Positions 6,402-13,232 are shown, counted from the stretch's first letter. The stretch is 64,000 nt of DNA from Flavobacteriales bacterium (GCA_040377305.1 JBEIPA010000001.1:108807-172806), one strand, 5' to 3'. Notes: generated from the letters alone by a model not told the origin. Numbers and translations are program-made.

Positions 6402-6605
6402 ATGAAAAAAGGCGTAGTGAAATTTTACAACCGCAAGAGCAAATTCGGCTTTATCCGCGATTCAGAAACCGGGACGGAATATTATGTTCATGGGAAAGAC
6501 ATTGCTGGACAAGTGGAAGAAGGCGATGTGGTAACCTTCGAGCTCAAAGAAGAAAAAAGAGGCCCCGCTGCGTGTAACGTAAATCCGGAAAAAACCGAAG
6601 GATAA
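6402..6605 (+). CDS. cold-shock domain protein (CspA family)
   Basis: 67 aa, GVVKFYNRKSKFGFI...YYVHG. The RNP1/RNP2-like motifs of the cold-shock domain are present. Confidence 0.85.
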   Translation: MKKGVVKFYNRKSKFGFIRDSETGTEYYVHGKDIAGQVEEGDVVTFELKEEKRGPAACNVNPEKTEG

Positions 6606-6669: not shown

Positions 6670-6903
6670 TTACCCAAAACGCCGTTTCTGTAACGATTTG
6701 TTTTTCAGCCGATTATTTGAATCACCCCCAAAGTATTCCCTAAGTTCTTTAGCCAAATACACCGGACGTAACCTCGGTTTAACGATAACATAAAATTCCC
6801 ATTCCGCTCCGGTATATTTTTGCCATACATTTGCAACCTGTTCTGAAGTGAACACCCTCAGGAATTGCTTTCTGCAATTGTCCGCAACCGCTTCAGCACG
6901 CAT
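6670..6903 (-). CDS. hypothetical small protein
   Basis: 77-aa ORF with ATG start in an otherwise empty gap. No recognisable motif. Confidence 0.25.
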   Translation of the reverse strand: MRAEAVADNCRKQFLRVFTSEQVANVWQKYTGAEWEFYVIVKPRLRPVYLAKELREYFGGDSNNRLKNKSLQKRRFG

Positions 6904-6998
6904 AGTACCCTATAAGGTATATCGTGTTTTAAGTTTGGTTAATAAATACAAATTCATAATAAACCGCTAGCTGTAAAAGGCTGAATCAATTTTTCGTC

Positions 6999-7925
6999 AT
7001 GAAAAAAATTCTACTCACTATTGCTGTTGCTGCTTCTGCACTAACAATGAATGCACAAACTTTCTGTACAGAGCTTTTCTTCTCTGAATATGTTGAAGGT
7101 TCATCTCACAACAAAGCACTGGAAGTGTACAATCCAACCAATGCACCTGTGAATCTTGCGAACTACCGAGTGATACGTTACAGTAATGGATCCGCAGTTC
7201 CGGTTGACAGTTTCGATCTTACCGGTACAATTGCGGCTCATGATGTTTGGGTAGTAACTAACGGACAAGCTACTCCGGATGCGCAGGGCGCTTTCTGCGA
7301 TTCTACGTTGAGGTCAATGGCAGATCAGTTGGGACCTGCACCATATGTTGCCGGTACTGCAGTAATGTTTATGAATGGTGATGACGCTCTCGGGCTTGCA
7401 CGCATTTCTCCTTACGCGATTGTCGACATCTTCGGTAAAATCGGTGAAGATCCGGGCACGAGTTGGTCGGATGTGTTTCCATATACTGATGCACAAGGTG
7501 CATGGTGGACACGTGATCATGCATTACAACGCAAACCTTCTGTTACCGGTGGAGTAACTGTAAACCCAACGGCATTTAACGTTACAGCTGAATATGACTC
7601 ACTTCCGGAAGATACCTGGACGAATCTGGGGATTCACAACTGTGTTTGTAACAACGTTGGCATTACAGAAAATAATGCGGGCGATAAAATGTCTGTTTAT
7701 CCGAATCCATCAAACGGTGAATTCGTTATCAACACCACTGAAAATATTTCACACATTGAAGTGATCAATGCACTGGGTCAAGTTGTTGTTGTAGAAGAAT
7801 TTACTTCTGCCGATCAGCAAACAACCAAGCGTGTTGACCTTACTGGCATGCCGGGCGGCATATACATGGTTCAGGTACAACTTGAAAACGGAGTTGTGCT
7901 TACTTCTAAGATCACTAAACGCTGA
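6999..7925 (+). CDS. secreted lamin-tail-domain (LTD) protein with T9SS C-terminal sorting domain
   Basis: Signal peptide MKKILLTIAVAASALTMNAQ. The LTD signature is FSEYVEGSSHNKALEVYNPTNAPVNLANYRV. The C-terminal ~80 aa are a Por/T9SS tail (MSVYPNPSNGEF...GIYMVQV). Confidence 0.7.
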   Translation: MKKILLTIAVAASALTMNAQTFCTELFFSEYVEGSSHNKALEVYNPTNAPVNLANYRVIRYSNGSAVPVDSFDLTGTIAAHDVWVVTNGQATPDAQGAFCDSTLRSMADQLGPAPYVAGTAVMFMNGDDALGLARISPYAIVDIFGKIGEDPGTSWSDVFPYTDAQGAWWTRDHALQRKPSVTGGVTVNPTAFNVTAEYDSLPEDTWTNLGIHNCVCNNVGITENNAGDKMSVYPNPSNGEFVINTTENISHIEVINALGQVVVVEEFTSADQQTTKRVDLTGMPGGIYMVQVQLENGVVLTSKITKR

Positions 7926-7952
7926 TTTTTGTACCTGCAGATGTATATTCAA

Positions 7953-7982
7953 AATGCTGACTTTATCGTCAGCATTTTTTTC
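7953..7982 (+). terminator. rho-independent terminator
   Basis: AATGCTGAC-tttatc-GTCAGCATT followed by a T7 run, directly after the stop of 6999-7925. Confidence 0.55.
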
Positions 7983-7990
7983 TGATCACA

Positions 7991-10918
7991 ATGAAAAACA
8001 TCATATCATCCGCTTTATTTGTTCTGTTCGCATTCACACTGAATGCGCAGTCAACCGTTTCCGGAAAAGTAACTGACGAGAATACCGGCGAGGCACTTGT
8101 CGGCGCAATCGTGGTTGCAGATTCGAGCAATAACGTTTCTGTTACTGACATCGATGGCAACTACAAACTCAAACTGAACGACGGAGCACATGCTTTGCAG
8201 GTTCGATACACTGGTTATACGCATACGGCTGTAACCGTGAATGTGTCCAGCAAAGACATGAACGTTGATTTGCCTGTAAAAAGCAACACACTGAAGGAGG
8301 TTCAGATTGTTGCAGACATCGTTATCGACCGTAAAACGCCTGTAGCGGTGAGCAATATCGGGGAACAGAAAATCCGCGAAGAAGCAGCAGGTCGTGACGT
8401 AACCATGTTGCTTAACTCAACTCCTGGTGCGTATGCAACAGAGCAAGGTGGTGGCGCAGGTGATTCCCGTGTTAATGTTCGTGGAGCTGATCAACGTAAC
8501 GTGGGCGTTATGGTTGATGGTGTGCCAATGAACGACATGGAGAACGGACAAGTATATTGGAGCAACTGGTCGGGTTTGATGGACGTAACCCGCACAATGC
8601 AGGTGCAACGTGGACTTGGTGCATCAAAGCTTGCCATTCCATCTGTGGGTGGTACAATCAACATTCTCACTCGAGGAATAGATCAAAAGAGAAGTTTCGT
8701 TTTCAAATCTGAAATCGGAAACAACAGCCTGCAGAAATATTACGTAGGATTCAATTCCGGCGAATTCGGAAATGGCTGGGGAATTACATTCGCGGGTTCC
8801 CGCCGTACTGCACAAGGCTGGGTTGATCAAACCTGGGATGATCAGTGGGCATATTTCGCGAAAGTTGAAAAGAGAATGGGCAATCACCTCTTCTCTGTTG
8901 GAATGAATGGAGCGCCGCAGTCTCATGGTCAGCGTTTCGATAGAATGCCGGTTGCAGTAATTGATCGCAAATACGCGGAGAGTATTGGTGCCAACGTAGA
9001 TTCTGTTTACGCCCTGAATGGTTACACGACATTATATCAAGGTGATCGTGGCCGGCAGTTCAATCCAAACTGGGGTTACATCGATTATACAGATGGTCAA
9101 ACGGGTAGATTGAATCAGAGTTCCAACTTCTATAATAAACCACTTGCAAATCTTTCCTGGTTCTGGAACCCCAATGAAAAATTCTCTCTTTCAACAGTAT
9201 TGTATTTCTCGCGCGGATATGGCGGAGGAACCAATTTCAATTCCGCGCCGAACCGCGACACAGCAACCGGTCAGTTGAATCTGAATCAGGTGTACTCGCT
9301 GAATACAACAACCTTCGATGCGCTGTATAGCACAACGGAACACAAATCAACGCGCGCACTTCTCGCCTCGATGAACAATCATATTTGGTTCGGCGGAATT
9401 ACAACGGCTCGTCTAAGCGTGAGTGAGAATCTGTCGATGACATTTGGTCTTGATGCCCGCCATTACAAAGGATCGCACTACCGTATGGTTTACGATTTAG
9501 TCGGCGGAGATTATTTCATTGATAATGCAAATAAGAATCAGCCGAACGGAATAGGGAATCTTCAGTACTCGATGAAGCAACGTGGAGATACAATTGGATA
9601 CTTCAACGATTCCTATGTCGATTGGCAAGGCCTGTTTTATCAAGCCGAATATTCCGAAGGACCGTGGAGCACCTTCCTTACTCTGACAGGTTCGTTGTCA
9701 ACTTATCAGCGTGTTGACCATTTCAAAAAACGCGACATCACTTTGGAAGATGGATCGGTTGTGCCAATGGTTGTTGGATACAATGAAGTGTATTACACCA
9801 ATGGAACAGAATCGGCACTTGCAATGAATAATGCAGTTCTCACTTCTTACGGGGACACACTCGTAATTGATAATCCTTCCGGACCGAACGATACGATTGT
9901 TGGGGCAACCGCGTACGCCTGGAATTCTGACGCGGCATCAACAGCAAGAACAGTGAAGAAAACAATTCCGGGCTTCACGATCAAGACGGGTGCGAATTAC
10001 AACCTCACGGAACATTACAACGTATTTGTGAATGTTGGCTTCATGAGCCTTGCACCACGATTCAATCAGGTGTTTGACAACAACAACCGCGTTTATCCTG
10101 GTGAGGATGATACGTTAATGTCGATCGGTGATGTACATATTCGTTCTATGCCCAGCCGTCAGCAGAAAATTTACTCTGCAGAAATCGGTTTTGGTGCGCG
10201 CTATTCTTCATTTGCTGCGAACCTGAATTTGTACTATACCAATTGGATGAACAAAGCTCCATACAGCACACCTACCACAAGTATTGCAGGTGATCCGTAC
10301 ACATATGATCTTACCGGATTGAACACCATTCTGATGGGCGTTGAGTTTGACGCAACCTGGAAACCACTCAAGCAATTGCAGATTGAAGGTTTGTTTTCAA
10401 TCGGGAACTGGAAATACAATTCGGCAGGACGTGTGTATTTGTACGATGCAAACTACGTACTTGACGATTCTATCGATTATAGTGCGAAGGGCGTTCACCT
10501 TGGCGATGCTGCTCAAACACAGTTTGGTGGATCTGTTCGCTACGAGCCAATTGAAGGTCTTTACTTTCGTGCGCGATACACCTACTTCGCGAATTACTAT
10601 GCAAGCTTTGATCCGATCATCCTGATTCCATTGTACAACTCGCAAGGAAATCTCGTTGGCGATAATCGCGACCACGATTCATGGAAGCTGCCTTCATATG
10701 GCTTGATTGATCTTTTCGCAGGGTATGAATACAGAGACTTTGTTGTAGGAGAAAAAGACAAACAGATCAAAGTCGCATTCAACTTCGGAATTACAAATCT
10801 TCTTGACACCAAATACATTTCTGATGCTCAGAACGGTGGTCAATTCGACGTAAACAGCTCACTTGTTTACATGGGATTAGGCCGCAGATGGGTTGCAGGT
10901 CTCAGATTCAGTTTCTAA
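7991..10918 (+). CDS. TonB-dependent outer-membrane receptor with N-terminal carboxypeptidase-regulatory-like domain
   Basis: 975 aa. Signal peptide, then STVSGKVTDENTGEALVGAIVV (CarbopepD_reg-like), then a plug region (NVRGADQRNVGVMVDGVPMND). The long beta-barrel ends in the aromatic ...RFSF. Confidence 0.85.
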   Translation: MKNIISSALFVLFAFTLNAQSTVSGKVTDENTGEALVGAIVVADSSNNVSVTDIDGNYKLKLNDGAHALQVRYTGYTHTAVTVNVSSKDMNVDLPVKSNTLKEVQIVADIVIDRKTPVAVSNIGEQKIREEAAGRDVTMLLNSTPGAYATEQGGGAGDSRVNVRGADQRNVGVMVDGVPMNDMENGQVYWSNWSGLMDVTRTMQVQRGLGASKLAIPSVGGTINILTRGIDQKRSFVFKSEIGNNSLQKYYVGFNSGEFGNGWGITFAGSRRTAQGWVDQTWDDQWAYFAKVEKRMGNHLFSVGMNGAPQSHGQRFDRMPVAVIDRKYAESIGANVDSVYALNGYTTLYQGDRGRQFNPNWGYIDYTDGQTGRLNQSSNFYNKPLANLSWFWNPNEKFSLSTVLYFSRGYGGGTNFNSAPNRDTATGQLNLNQVYSLNTTTFDALYSTTEHKSTRALLASMNNHIWFGGITTARLSVSENLSMTFGLDARHYKGSHYRMVYDLVGGDYFIDNANKNQPNGIGNLQYSMKQRGDTIGYFNDSYVDWQGLFYQAEYSEGPWSTFLTLTGSLSTYQRVDHFKKRDITLEDGSVVPMVVGYNEVYYTNGTESALAMNNAVLTSYGDTLVIDNPSGPNDTIVGATAYAWNSDAASTARTVKKTIPGFTIKTGANYNLTEHYNVFVNVGFMSLAPRFNQVFDNNNRVYPGEDDTLMSIGDVHIRSMPSRQQKIYSAEIGFGARYSSFAANLNLYYTNWMNKAPYSTPTTSIAGDPYTYDLTGLNTILMGVEFDATWKPLKQLQIEGLFSIGNWKYNSAGRVYLYDANYVLDDSIDYSAKGVHLGDAAQTQFGGSVRYEPIEGLYFRARYTYFANYYASFDPIILIPLYNSQGNLVGDNRDHDSWKLPSYGLIDLFAGYEYRDFVVGEKDKQIKVAFNFGITNLLDTKYISDAQNGGQFDVNSSLVYMGLGRRWVAGLRFSF

Positions 10919-10976
10919 CTTAAACGTCTAATGAAACCGCTTGCGGTTCACGAATACAAAATCGAATACTAAAAAA

Positions 10977-13169
10977 ATGAGTAAAAAATTCATCACAGCA
11001 ATTTGCATGGCATTCACAGTTGCGGTTGCAGCTCAAACTACATTGCCAACATCGTGGAGTTTTGCCACCTCCGTTTATCCCAATGGTTGGACTGCAGTAG
11101 GAACAGGATTCTACACCGGGTCGGGTAATACGCCGCCAGCTTGTCGTTTCGACAACACGGCTGACTATCTTGAAATCTGGTTTGCATCTTCAGCAGGACC
11201 GGTAACGTATTACATCAGCGGGAACAGTTTCTCCGGCGGAACATTTGAAGTACAGGAATCGCCGAACGGAACTGCCTGGACTACGATGCGCACGTTCACT
11301 ACGAATATGCCCTCGGCCTACACACAGTTTACGGATAATCCACTTGCCACCACACGTTACGTGCGTTTCTTCTATACCGTAAAACAATCTGGCAACGTAG
11401 GAGTAGACGATGTTACGATTGCAGCGGCAGCGGCAACGCCGGCTCAGGAAATTGATGTGTTTTACAACACCACTGCACTCATCAGCGGAGGCACAATCTG
11501 GATGGGTTCCCCGGTTAGCACAACTACTCCATTCGTAGTTGATGTAGAGAATAACGGAACAGTGAACACATTAAATATTGCTTCAGCAGTTCTGTCTGGA
11601 ACTAACGCTGCTGATTTCAATGTCACTGCTTTCCCTTCGACCATCGCCGCAAACGGAAACGGACAAATCACTATTGACTTCACTCCATCATCAACGGGAA
11701 CTCGTGTTGCAACTTTAACGATCAACAGTGATGATGCTGATGAGCCTGCATTTGTTGTAAACCTCAATGGTGCGGGTGGAAACTTCGCAACAGAGCCAGC
11801 TTCACCGGCAACTAATATGACTTTCACGAACATCAAGTCGTATCGCTTTCAGATGAATTTTACTGCAGCCTCTGGTTCACCGGATGGATACGTTGTTCTT
11901 CGTCGGGATGATGCCGCAGTAACTGACATTCCTGTTGATGGACAATCATACTTGACTGGAGATATGGTCGGCAACAGTAAAGTTGCTTATGTAGGAACTG
12001 CAACTTCAATATGGGCAAATTACGTTGGCGCATCACAGGATTATTTCTTCGCTGTATTTCCTTACAATGGTCCCGGTGCATTCAGAAATTACCTCACAGC
12101 AAACGCTCTTAGTGGTAACGTAATGTCAGCTGGTTCAATGTTGCCTGGTGGTTACTACAGCAGCGTCAACACATCAGCATCAACTTTCGTAGCTGATCTA
12201 ACTGCAGTTACAAATCCACACACAGATAAATTCTACAGCAACTACGGCCCGTACATGATTTCATTGTTTTGGGCACGAGACACCACAGCAGGTCAGCGAG
12301 CAGTAACCTGCGTATACTCTGGTGAAAATCAAATCTACAGTGAGCCTTGGGCTTGGACTATTTTCAGCCGGGAACACACATTCTGTCACAGCTGGATGCC
12401 AACCTACCCTTCATCAACCGGTCCAGAATACAGCGACTACTTCAACCTGTACCCTGCCAACCAGAACGATGCAAACGCTGTCCGTAGTAACTATCCTTTG
12501 GGAGAAGTTGTAACGACAACATACACCTATCTCGGTTGCAAATACGGACAAGACGCAAATGGTCGCACCGTTTTCGAACCACGTGATGAACAGAAAGGTG
12601 ATGCTGCGAGATCCATGTTCTATATGGCTACCTGTTACAACACACAATCCACTAACTGGGGATTACCGAATCCGATTTCAACGAGTATCATGTACGGTCA
12701 GGATCAAAATCTTCTGAAAGCATGGCATTTTCAGGATTTACCGGACGCACGCGAAATTGCAAAGAACGATTTCCTCGATTCATTGCAAGGCAACAGAAAT
12801 CCGTTCATCGATAGCGTGAACTATGCATGTTATATCGACTTCAACGATATGTCGAAAATCAATGGTCCAATGGTTCCCTGTGCGAACTCTTCAATCGGAA
12901 TTCTTGAAAGCGGATCTTCAGCAGTTGCGATGAACCTCGCACCAAATCCAGGCAACGGTCTGTGTTCACTTACATATAAGACTGATCGCAACGAGCAGAT
13001 TCAGATCAACGTGACTGATGTGCTCGGGAAAGTGGTTTACACCCAAACGACACAAGTGACATTGGGATTGAATGCTGTAATGTTGGATTTAGCGTTCTTG
13101 CCTGCGGGGTCGTATTTGGTGCAGGTTAAGGGTGCGTCTGTTTTAACGGACAAACTGATAATTAAGTAA
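10977..13169 (+). CDS. extracellular endonuclease I family (EndA/Vvn-like) protein with T9SS C-terminal sorting domain
   Basis: The ATG at 10977 (MSKKFITAICMAFTVAVAAQ) is preferred over the TTG at 10941. Endonuclease I motifs: REHTFCHSW (EHVxP-like), FNLYPANQNDANAVRSN, GDAARSMFYMA and NRNPFID. The C-terminal Por tail is LAPNPGNG...GSYLVQV. Confidence 0.75.
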   Translation: MSKKFITAICMAFTVAVAAQTTLPTSWSFATSVYPNGWTAVGTGFYTGSGNTPPACRFDNTADYLEIWFASSAGPVTYYISGNSFSGGTFEVQESPNGTAWTTMRTFTTNMPSAYTQFTDNPLATTRYVRFFYTVKQSGNVGVDDVTIAAAAATPAQEIDVFYNTTALISGGTIWMGSPVSTTTPFVVDVENNGTVNTLNIASAVLSGTNAADFNVTAFPSTIAANGNGQITIDFTPSSTGTRVATLTINSDDADEPAFVVNLNGAGGNFATEPASPATNMTFTNIKSYRFQMNFTAASGSPDGYVVLRRDDAAVTDIPVDGQSYLTGDMVGNSKVAYVGTATSIWANYVGASQDYFFAVFPYNGPGAFRNYLTANALSGNVMSAGSMLPGGYYSSVNTSASTFVADLTAVTNPHTDKFYSNYGPYMISLFWARDTTAGQRAVTCVYSGENQIYSEPWAWTIFSREHTFCHSWMPTYPSSTGPEYSDYFNLYPANQNDANAVRSNYPLGEVVTTTYTYLGCKYGQDANGRTVFEPRDEQKGDAARSMFYMATCYNTQSTNWGLPNPISTSIMYGQDQNLLKAWHFQDLPDAREIAKNDFLDSLQGNRNPFIDSVNYACYIDFNDMSKINGPMVPCANSSIGILESGSSAVAMNLAPNPGNGLCSLTYKTDRNEQIQINVTDVLGKVVYTQTTQVTLGLNAVMLDLAFLPAGSYLVQVKGASVLTDKLIIK

Positions 13170-13182
13170 TTACGAGGTCATA

Positions 13183-13232
13183 AAGGGACCCTTTGGGGGC
13201 GATTAGCCTTCAGAGGGTCTTTTCTTTTTTGG
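13183..13232 (+). terminator. putative terminator hairpin
   Basis: GACCCT-n22-AGGGTC followed by TTTTCTTTTTT just after the stop at 13169. The stem is weak and the loop is long. Confidence 0.35.

Follow-up and report, generated by a model that had tools for sequence, protein, structure and literature searches.

What do three adjacent genes encoding a lamin-tail-domain (LTD) protein, a TonB-dependent transporter, and an Endonuclease_1 enzyme accomplish together in a bacterium of the Flavobacteriales? The genes occupy positions 6999-13169 of a 64,000-nucleotide stretch of genomic DNA (GCA_040377305.1, JBEIPA010000001.1:108807-172806), referred to here as the window, and an earlier sequence-only reading interpreted them as a locus for degrading extracellular DNA and taking up the products. 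The analysis reported here makes it probable that the locus is a self-contained nucleic-acid scavenging module, a variant of the DNA-utilization loci that is based on a type IX secretion system (T9SS) and belongs to environmental Bacteroidota.

The three co-directional genes that had been read from the sequence were confirmed as open reading frames (ORFs), all on the + strand: the LTD protein gene at 6999-7925 (308 aa), the transporter gene at 7991-10918 (975 aa), and the Endonuclease_1 gene, whose longest ORF starts with TTG at 10941-13169 (742 aa) and which from its ATG covers 10977-13169 (730 aa). The public protein P0121 is identical to the 730-aa form of the nuclease, and the length of 731 aa given originally was off by one. 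The LTD and transporter genes are 65 nt apart (7926-7990) and the transporter and nuclease genes 22 or 58 nt apart, depending on the start codon; a strong terminator-like hairpin of the intrinsic type, with 18 pairs and a T-run (13183-13223, + strand), closes the unit. Sec-type signal peptides ending in A-Q can be read from the translations of all three proteins.

Pfam and NCBIfam profile searches, judged against curated cut-offs, support the domain assignments of the sequence-only reading, including a T9SS sorting tail (PF18962 and TIGR04183) on both secreted proteins. The LTD protein matches LTD (PF00932) with 46.1 bits (cut-off 34.3), Por_Secre_tail (PF18962) with 49.8 bits (cut-off 27), and TIGR04183 with 47.7 bits, also above the cut-off, and its residues 5-214 match the N-terminal LTD module of ExeM in NCBIfam (E 1.6e-20). 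The order of domains is a signal peptide, an LTD beta-sandwich of ~180 aa, a linker, and a T9SS type A C-terminal domain; in contrast, Shewanella ExeM/NucH has a nuclease domain of its own and a different anchor signal, while the window protein consists of the LTD and the T9SS tail only. An AlphaFold2 model of the protein has a predicted local distance difference test (pLDDT) score of 75.9. Foldseek matched this model to the Ig folds of lamins A/C and B1 (probability 1.00, target-normalised TM-scores of ~0.5-0.6) and also returned T9SS C-terminal domain structures; the tail of the model can be superposed on the C-terminal domain of RemA (8GL6) with a target-length TM-score of 0.80. The proposed role of this protein is that of a surface catcher, which would hold nucleic acid for the transporter.

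The nuclease matches Endonuclease_1 (PF04231) with 110.4 bits (cut-off 25, E 1.5e-31) over profile positions 74-233 of 235, and Por_Secre_tail and TIGR04183 with 37.6 and 38.1 bits, both above the cut-offs. NCBIfam also identifies a choice-of-anchor-D Ig domain, and the complete order is signal peptide, jelly-roll, choice-of-anchor-D Ig domain, FN3-like domain, Endonuclease_1 catalytic domain, and T9SS type A C-terminal domain. Whether the nuclease motif would hold up in a proper alignment had been named as one test of the sequence-only reading; across 25 full-length homologues with 53-83% identity, S464-R465-E466-H467, N500, and R503 (numbered on the 730-aa form) are invariant, and the catalytic motif appears conserved and intact. 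N500 aligns with the Asn of the stretch “EVNGDRSN” in Vvn, for which solved structures were used (1OUO, 1OUP), and the Pfam match begins at profile position 74, right ahead of the Glu-His pair. We take the Asn of this stretch to be the Mg-binding Asn127, and E466-H467 presumably corresponds to E79-H80 of Vvn, the catalytic Glu-His of the beta-beta-alpha-metal motif, an equivalence drawn from profile coordinates rather than from a residue-level alignment.

Vibrio vulnificus Vvn and Escherichia coli EndA (1OUO, 1OUP) belong to the same Pfam family and can be aligned with the window nuclease over the C-terminal half, including the Mg-binding Asn. However, they are single-domain periplasmic proteins of ~210 aa that are exported by Sec only, whereas the window nuclease is a 730-aa surface protein, and its catalytic domain covers only profile positions 74-233 and is shorter from the catalytic His to the Asn. 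AlphaFold2 modelled the three N-terminal beta-sandwiches (~25-150, 155-268, and 275-385) and the tail with confidence. The model of the catalytic domain, built from 25 sequences, had pLDDT <50 over residues 386-648 and was not used. In the fold search the N-terminal part looks like a generic stalk built from MAM, Ig, and FN3 domains. The “Endonuclease I” chain of PDB 8GLK aligns with the T9SS tail.

Export of an endonuclease I by the T9SS had been called unusual, but that view does not hold, since 8GLK, EndoI of Riemerella anatipestifer, and EndA1/EndA2 of Flavobacterium johnsoniae are all precedents. EndoI (AS87_RS02625) is a T9SS cargo with divalent-metal-dependent DNase and RNase activity and is a virulence factor; it shares the Endonuclease I family and the T9SS export route with the window nuclease, which differs in having three extra N-terminal beta-sandwich domains, and a linked transporter or LTD protein has not been reported for EndoI. 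Phosphate depletion induces EndA1 and EndA2 (Fjoh_4721 and Fjoh_4723), which are built of fn3, LTD, and Endonuclease_1 domains and are found in the exoproteome. They resemble the window proteins in combining these three domains in extracellular enzymes of a T9SS organism; unlike these fused proteins, which are listed as “orphan,” the LTD of the window is separate, and the LTD and nuclease genes flank a dedicated transporter gene.

The transporter matches CarbopepD_reg_2 (58.5 bits) and Plug (49.7 bits) in Pfam, both above the cut-off. Its NCBIfam score against the SusC/RagA model TIGR04056 is 81.1 bits, versus a cut-off of 368.25, and covers only the first 165 profile positions; the transporter is outside the SusC family, and the locus does not qualify as a classical SusC/SusD polysaccharide utilization locus (PUL). 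No SusD-like gene was found in the flanks of the locus. Profile matches in the PDB to TonB-linked receptors span only the N-terminal extension and the plug, while the length of 975 aa and the C-terminal F (...RFSF) fit a barrel.

If these three genes form a functional unit, they should stay together in other genomes. A transporter-profile scan of one genome per GTDB species gave at least 557 confirmed relatives, and the best 80 of these, with transporters 40-72% identical, were compared for synteny by searching their ORFs with the window proteins; the set represents Bacteroidia, Flavobacteriales, Crocinitomicaceae, Fluviicola, and other Bacteroidota metagenome-assembled genomes. The LTD gene is directly upstream of the transporter gene and on the same strand in every locus that could be assessed on its contig (73 of 73), and in 55 of 61 assessable loci a multidomain Endonuclease_1 gene is found downstream of the transporter, as the immediate neighbour in 52. 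Because the arrangement recurs in nearly every related locus examined, the clustering of the three genes is far beyond chance, and the synteny in relatives that the sequence-only reading had named as a check is strongly conserved. When all ORFs of the 80 loci were clustered, only the LTD, transporter, and nuclease families recurred and the flanks depended on lineage; therefore the three-gene unit is mobile and self-contained. One member of the set, CP034120.1 (L042, 2705849-2722575), is a complete genome labelled Glaciecola amylolytica (Gammaproteobacteria) and has a Crocinitomicaceae-type locus with T9SS tails and a variant of the RNA leader described below; since the T9SS is a Bacteroidota trait, the organism label looks doubtful.

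The strongest functional evidence that the LTD-transporter pair handles nucleic acid comes from the loci in which the nuclease has been replaced. In five of the six loci without Endonuclease_1, the slot after the transporter gene is occupied by a T9SS cargo protein of ~750 aa with a phospholipase D (PLD) nuclease domain, in which DUF5689 is followed by an fn3-like domain, a pair of PLD repeats, and a tail for T9SS sorting; in one further locus a PLD-type gene is inserted alongside the Endonuclease_1 gene. These DUF5689-fn3-PLD genes are found at L026:9751-12033, L048:9830-12064, L077:9860-12046, L080:7729-9990, L071:4939-7215, and L070:6644-8890. Both HKD motifs of the PLD domain are intact, and among solved proteins its nearest relatives are Zucchini/MitoPLD together with the nucleases Nuc and NucT. 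In two loci (L026 and L048) the PLD gene is followed by one for an S1/P1 nuclease. Three unrelated nuclease families are exchangeable at one operon position.

Other loci have genes appended to the unit. A gene with a 5'-nucleotidase C-terminal domain follows the nuclease gene on the same strand in 14 loci of the Crocinitomicaceae/Fluviicola type, and a calcineurin-like phosphoesterase gene then follows in 12 of the 14. This 5'-nucleotidase extension belongs to one clade and stands directly after the nuclease gene (L036, L040-L042, L046, L050-L056, L061, L068, and L078). The exchange of nucleases and the addition of enzymes that dephosphorylate nucleotides are as expected if the LTD-transporter pair handles nucleic-acid fragments, and the proposal of scavenging and uptake made by the sequence-only reading is strengthened by both.

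The sequence-only reading had also stated that the pairing was not a described PUL type, a statement overtaken by the description in 2025 of the transporter and nuclease loci ddbABCDEF. These genes are needed for depletion of exogenous DNA in Bacteroides thetaiotaomicron (PNAS 2025, PMC12478041); they encode a TonB-dependent transporter and secreted nucleases, occur in related gut Bacteroidales, and are PUL-like (PMC12478041). DdbD is a DUF5689 protein and the predicted DNA-binding partner of the transporter (PMC12478041). The window locus is similar in that a transporter and secreted nucleases are encoded together, following the PUL type of logic with nucleic acid as the polymer, and DUF5689 recurs in sister loci of the window family, where it is fused to the PLD nuclease. 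This fusion of the DdbD domain to the sister-locus nuclease ties the two types of system together.

The differences are as clear. The surface proteins of the window belong to the T9SS cargo and have type A C-terminal domains, while those of ddb are signal peptidase II lipoproteins; the partner protein is an LTD beta-sandwich, not DUF5689, and its gene precedes the transporter gene; the nuclease is an Endonuclease_1; and there are three genes rather than six, carried by free-living environmental Bacteroidota. Pfam gives no DUF5689 match in the three window proteins, and kinship of the LTD and DUF5689 was rejected, as a profile comparison between the LTD family and the DUF5689-PLD proteins aligns the C-terminal sorting domains only. 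The window locus is considered to work like a DNA-utilization locus but is classified outside ddb, because it has no DUF5689 match and its LTD is not detectably related to DUF5689. The SusC/SusD PULs also encode an outer-membrane transporter, a surface binding protein (here proposed), and surface hydrolases together; unlike these, the window locus has neither a SusD-like gene nor glycoside hydrolases. Lamin-tail domains and the T9SS are not mentioned in the ddb paper (PMC12478041), and the combination of LTD, transporter, and T9SS nuclease was found neither in that paper nor in full-text literature searches. What these sources do not describe is the stand-alone LTD gene ahead of the transporter gene, the surface parts delivered by the T9SS, the Endonuclease_1 on a long stalk, and the occurrence in free-living Bacteroidota.

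A mechanism for such a scavenging module can be proposed from these parts, and we infer from them both the substrate and the direction in which it is moved. Both the LTD protein and the Endonuclease_1 enzyme would cross the inner membrane through Sec and then be moved by the T9SS to the surface or into the medium, where the nuclease would cleave extracellular DNA, and probably also RNA, to oligonucleotides. The LTD protein would capture substrate or products at the surface, which is the job of DdbD or SusD in the lipoprotein systems, and the TonB-energised transporter would bring oligonucleotide fragments into the periplasm. Nucleotidases and phosphatases, which some lineages encode in the operon and which in this organism would be encoded elsewhere in the genome, would finally free nucleosides and phosphate.

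Several points weigh against this reading. The beta-barrel of the transporter has no match to any Pfam barrel model, and its substrate is deduced from the neighbouring genes alone, just as the capture role of the LTD protein is derived from fusions such as ExeM. Genes for follow-up steps in the periplasm or inner membrane are absent from the window, and both the locus and the transporter family are known from sequence alone. Even for ddb, B. thetaiotaomicron made poor use of DNA as the only source of carbon, nitrogen, or phosphorus (PMC12478041), and to describe the polymer as a nutrient may be too simple. An internal terminator-like hairpin also means that joint expression of the three genes is not obligatory, which qualifies the simple co-expression that had been assumed.

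This hairpin (7951-7985, + strand) occupies the gap between the LTD and transporter genes; its stem has 11 bp, a U tract follows, and it ends 6 nt ahead of the transporter start codon. A stable hairpin with a T-run is present in this gap in 49 of 73 loci, although the sequences are unrelated. No room for a promoter is left after the hairpin of the window, and therefore read-through is the most likely source of transporter and nuclease expression, which would be weaker than that of the LTD protein. The hairpin is accordingly proposed to be a leaky internal attenuator, and such a terminator past the LTD gene would provide more of the binding protein than of the transporter and nuclease.

The most surprising feature of the operon was found just outside the coordinates of the sequence-only reading and links the operon to other T9SS cargo. 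Comparison of the regions upstream of LTD genes identified a structured RNA leader of 54 nt (6843-6896, + strand). In the window its stem P1 is ctgaagtG / Cgcttcag, and compensatory variants of P1 between loci include gaagtG/Cgcttc, gaggtG/Cgcctc, aaagcG/Cgcttt, and ttcatG/Catgaa. The other parts are a conserved junction 1 (AACACCCUCAGG in the window, YCCU(A/U)(C/G)A across loci), a hairpin P2 of variable sequence with a bulge on its 3' side, and a conserved junction 2 (UCCGCAAC in the window, YYGAAAC across loci). In a seed alignment of 19 sequences (A6), 84.2% of the cells are paired, compared with 35-50% when the partners are slid, and 12 of 17 pairs are compensatory.

A covariance model (R1) was built from this seed and used to search both strands of 1.07 Mb. 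It found 46 copies of the leader, all on the gene strand and all in 5' leaders; the copy in the window scores 54.1 bits (E 8.9e-11) and is the only R1 match in the 64 kb. In the alignment of the 46 copies (A7), which is fitted to R1 and so favours structure, 83.7% of the cells are paired, compared with 37-49% after sliding, and 16 of 17 pairs are compensatory. A divergent variant from Crocinitomicaceae with the same architecture reaches 95.2% versus 28-49%. A script scan of shuffled sequence for the motif gave no matches. Some matches based on regular expressions and P1 pairing, such as those in L004 (minus strand) and L063, were dropped as false positives once they had been inspected and the covariance model applied. 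In Rfam 15 nothing with an E of up to 10 covers the motif, and no family attains its gathering score over the whole window; the 64 kb contain neither tRNA genes nor Rfam RNA genes, and no description of the leader was found in literature searches.

A match to the Bacteroidota -7 element (TAnnTTTG), TACATTTG, is located at 6826-6833 (+ strand), ~10 nt ahead of the leader, and 25 of 69 related loci have the same octamer upstream of their leader. Given the known Bacteroidota consensus, TACATTTG may be the promoter element of the operon, with expression predicted to start from this promoter. TAAGTTTG at 6931-6938 was also considered as a -7 box and rejected, as it is the U tract of the hairpin that follows the leader and TACATTTG fits better. 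A scan for sigma-70-type promoters, a model that is ill-suited to Bacteroidota, gave sites no more frequent than in shuffled sequence. Further upstream, a small cold-shock-domain gene (6402-6605, + strand) separates the leader and promoter region from the divergent deoxyhypusine synthase gene. The neighbouring genes, for deoxyhypusine synthase, the cold-shock protein, and an M23/LysM peptidase, are functionally unrelated to the operon; the deoxyhypusine synthase neighbour is common to 25 related loci, a flank kept at the level of the lineage only.

The leader is followed by a terminator-like hairpin at 6897-6941 (+ strand; CACGCATAGTACC / GGTATATCGTG, then UUUUAAGUUUGG), which is possibly its expression platform. 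Conservation of this hairpin, including compensatory changes, is limited to the closest relative (L002), and most copies of the leader have no following terminator and are 20-50 nt ahead of the start codon. A terminator-based ON-switch was therefore rejected as a general model, the CCGAA/UUCGG pairing being limited to few loci. The leader is a candidate cis-regulatory RNA that could be a riboswitch, a protein-binding leader, or a stabilising 5' structure.

The leader is not confined to nuclease operons. Extra copies, several of them in tandem, stand ahead of other T9SS cargo genes a short way upstream of the operon, and further sites, tandem ones included, are at L021:3433-3548, L030:2074-2208, L014:3429-3547, L103:2397-2528, and L084:4345-4479. 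Large proteins of 1100-1550 aa are encoded behind the leader and closely upstream of the operon in some genomes, with a T9SS tail as the only recognisable domain (L019:1489-5718, L029:1056-5702, L030:2238-5639, L103:2549-7009, and L084:4506-9158); the one from L019 has no match among PDB sequences. A scan of metagenomes for the motif pattern gave 35 stretches with 32 leader copies by R1, of which seven precede LTD-protein genes of the operon type. The other downstream proteins that were scanned to the C-terminus were all T9SS cargo; their tails are of type A or type B, and they include SprB repeats, PKD or Ig domains, and in one case an N-terminal LTD. A leader specific to nuclease operons was rejected, as most of the metagenome copies are ahead of other T9SS cargo. 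Since the leader precedes such diverse cargo, it is the signature of a T9SS-cargo regulon that extends beyond the nuclease operons. A more ambitious interpretation, to which we give somewhat less than even credence, is that the leader is an aptamer of a new riboswitch class, or the site of a dedicated regulator, that coordinates T9SS cargo, and that the operon is an undescribed architecture in which a T9SS-delivered LTD protein replaces SusD or DdbD; the signal to which such a leader would respond is likewise a matter of proposal.

The company that the leader keeps also bears on whether the enzymes are for feeding at all. As copies are found before adhesin-like T9SS cargo with SprB repeats and PKD domains, the operon is linked to cell-surface biology, and the nuclease and LTD protein could have a non-nutritional purpose, such as remodelling of DNA-containing biofilm, dispersal, or attack and defence, with the transporter carrying an unrelated substrate. 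A homologue of ddbF was first tied to biofilm formation, the Riemerella nucleases are virulence factors, and the JGI source labels call transporter homologues receptors for iron complexes or cobalamin. Those names, however, are automatic and below any curated cut-off, and genes for siderophores or cobalamin, or the corresponding riboswitches, are not nearby. The invariant adjacency of the LTD and transporter genes, the persistence of a downstream nuclease from three families, and the appended nucleotidases would all be hard to explain, and this interpretation is considered unlikely.

Natural transformation is another process in which a nuclease gene and an outer-membrane protein are found together. 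In R. anatipestifer, RA0C_RS04915/RA0C_RS04920 comprise a barrel protein with a carboxypeptidase-regulatory-like domain beside a DUF5689 protein and a nuclease gene (PMC8459023), and the barrel protein is proposed to carry DNA across the outer membrane for transformation (PMC8459023). The ddb locus has been tied to these genes, and its authors see the two types of system as related (PMC12478041). By analogy, the window locus could import long DNA that its nuclease only trims, and it does share an outer-membrane protein with a carboxypeptidase-regulatory-like domain encoded next to a nuclease gene. This likeness to ddb and Riemerella is one of parts and of locus logic, and the shared carboxypeptidase-regulatory-like domain is only a resemblance. 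In contrast to the Riemerella genes, the window locus lacks a stand-alone DUF5689 partner and has degradative enzymes, with nucleotidases in some lineages; the operon nuclease is predicted to be non-specific, and together with the PLD or S1/P1 nucleases and 5'-nucleotidases of the sister loci it would destroy DNA rather than preserve it. The com, dprA, and recA genes are not recurrent near the 80 loci either, and uptake for transformation is judged quite improbable.

A module aimed at RNA or at other phosphodiesters (teichoic-acid-like polymers or phospholipid head groups) purely for phosphate, with DNA as a minor substrate, is very improbable and would overlap with scavenging of nucleic acids instead of excluding it: Endonuclease_1 enzymes of this branch do cleave RNA besides DNA, PLD-family and calcineurin-like phosphoesterases accept many phosphodiesters, and the F. 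johnsoniae homologues are part of the phosphate-starvation response, but the nearest solved relatives of the PLD domain are nucleases rather than lipid hydrolases, and DUF5689 and LTD modules go with DNA-acting proteins.

In soils, sediments, and fresh water, large stocks of organic phosphorus and nitrogen are present as extracellular DNA and RNA, and Bacteroidota are major degraders of polymers in the same habitats. The module is compact and very widespread; it would carry the concept of DNA utilization from gut Bacteroidales to free-living lineages, and it would serve as a simple marker of nucleic-acid turnover in metagenomes. If the proposed mechanism is true, a T9SS cargo protein can act as the substrate-capture partner of a TonB-dependent transporter. 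If the leader is regulatory, it would be the first cis-acting RNA tied to the expression of type IX secretion cargo, and it offers a handle on when adhesins and scavenging enzymes are displayed.

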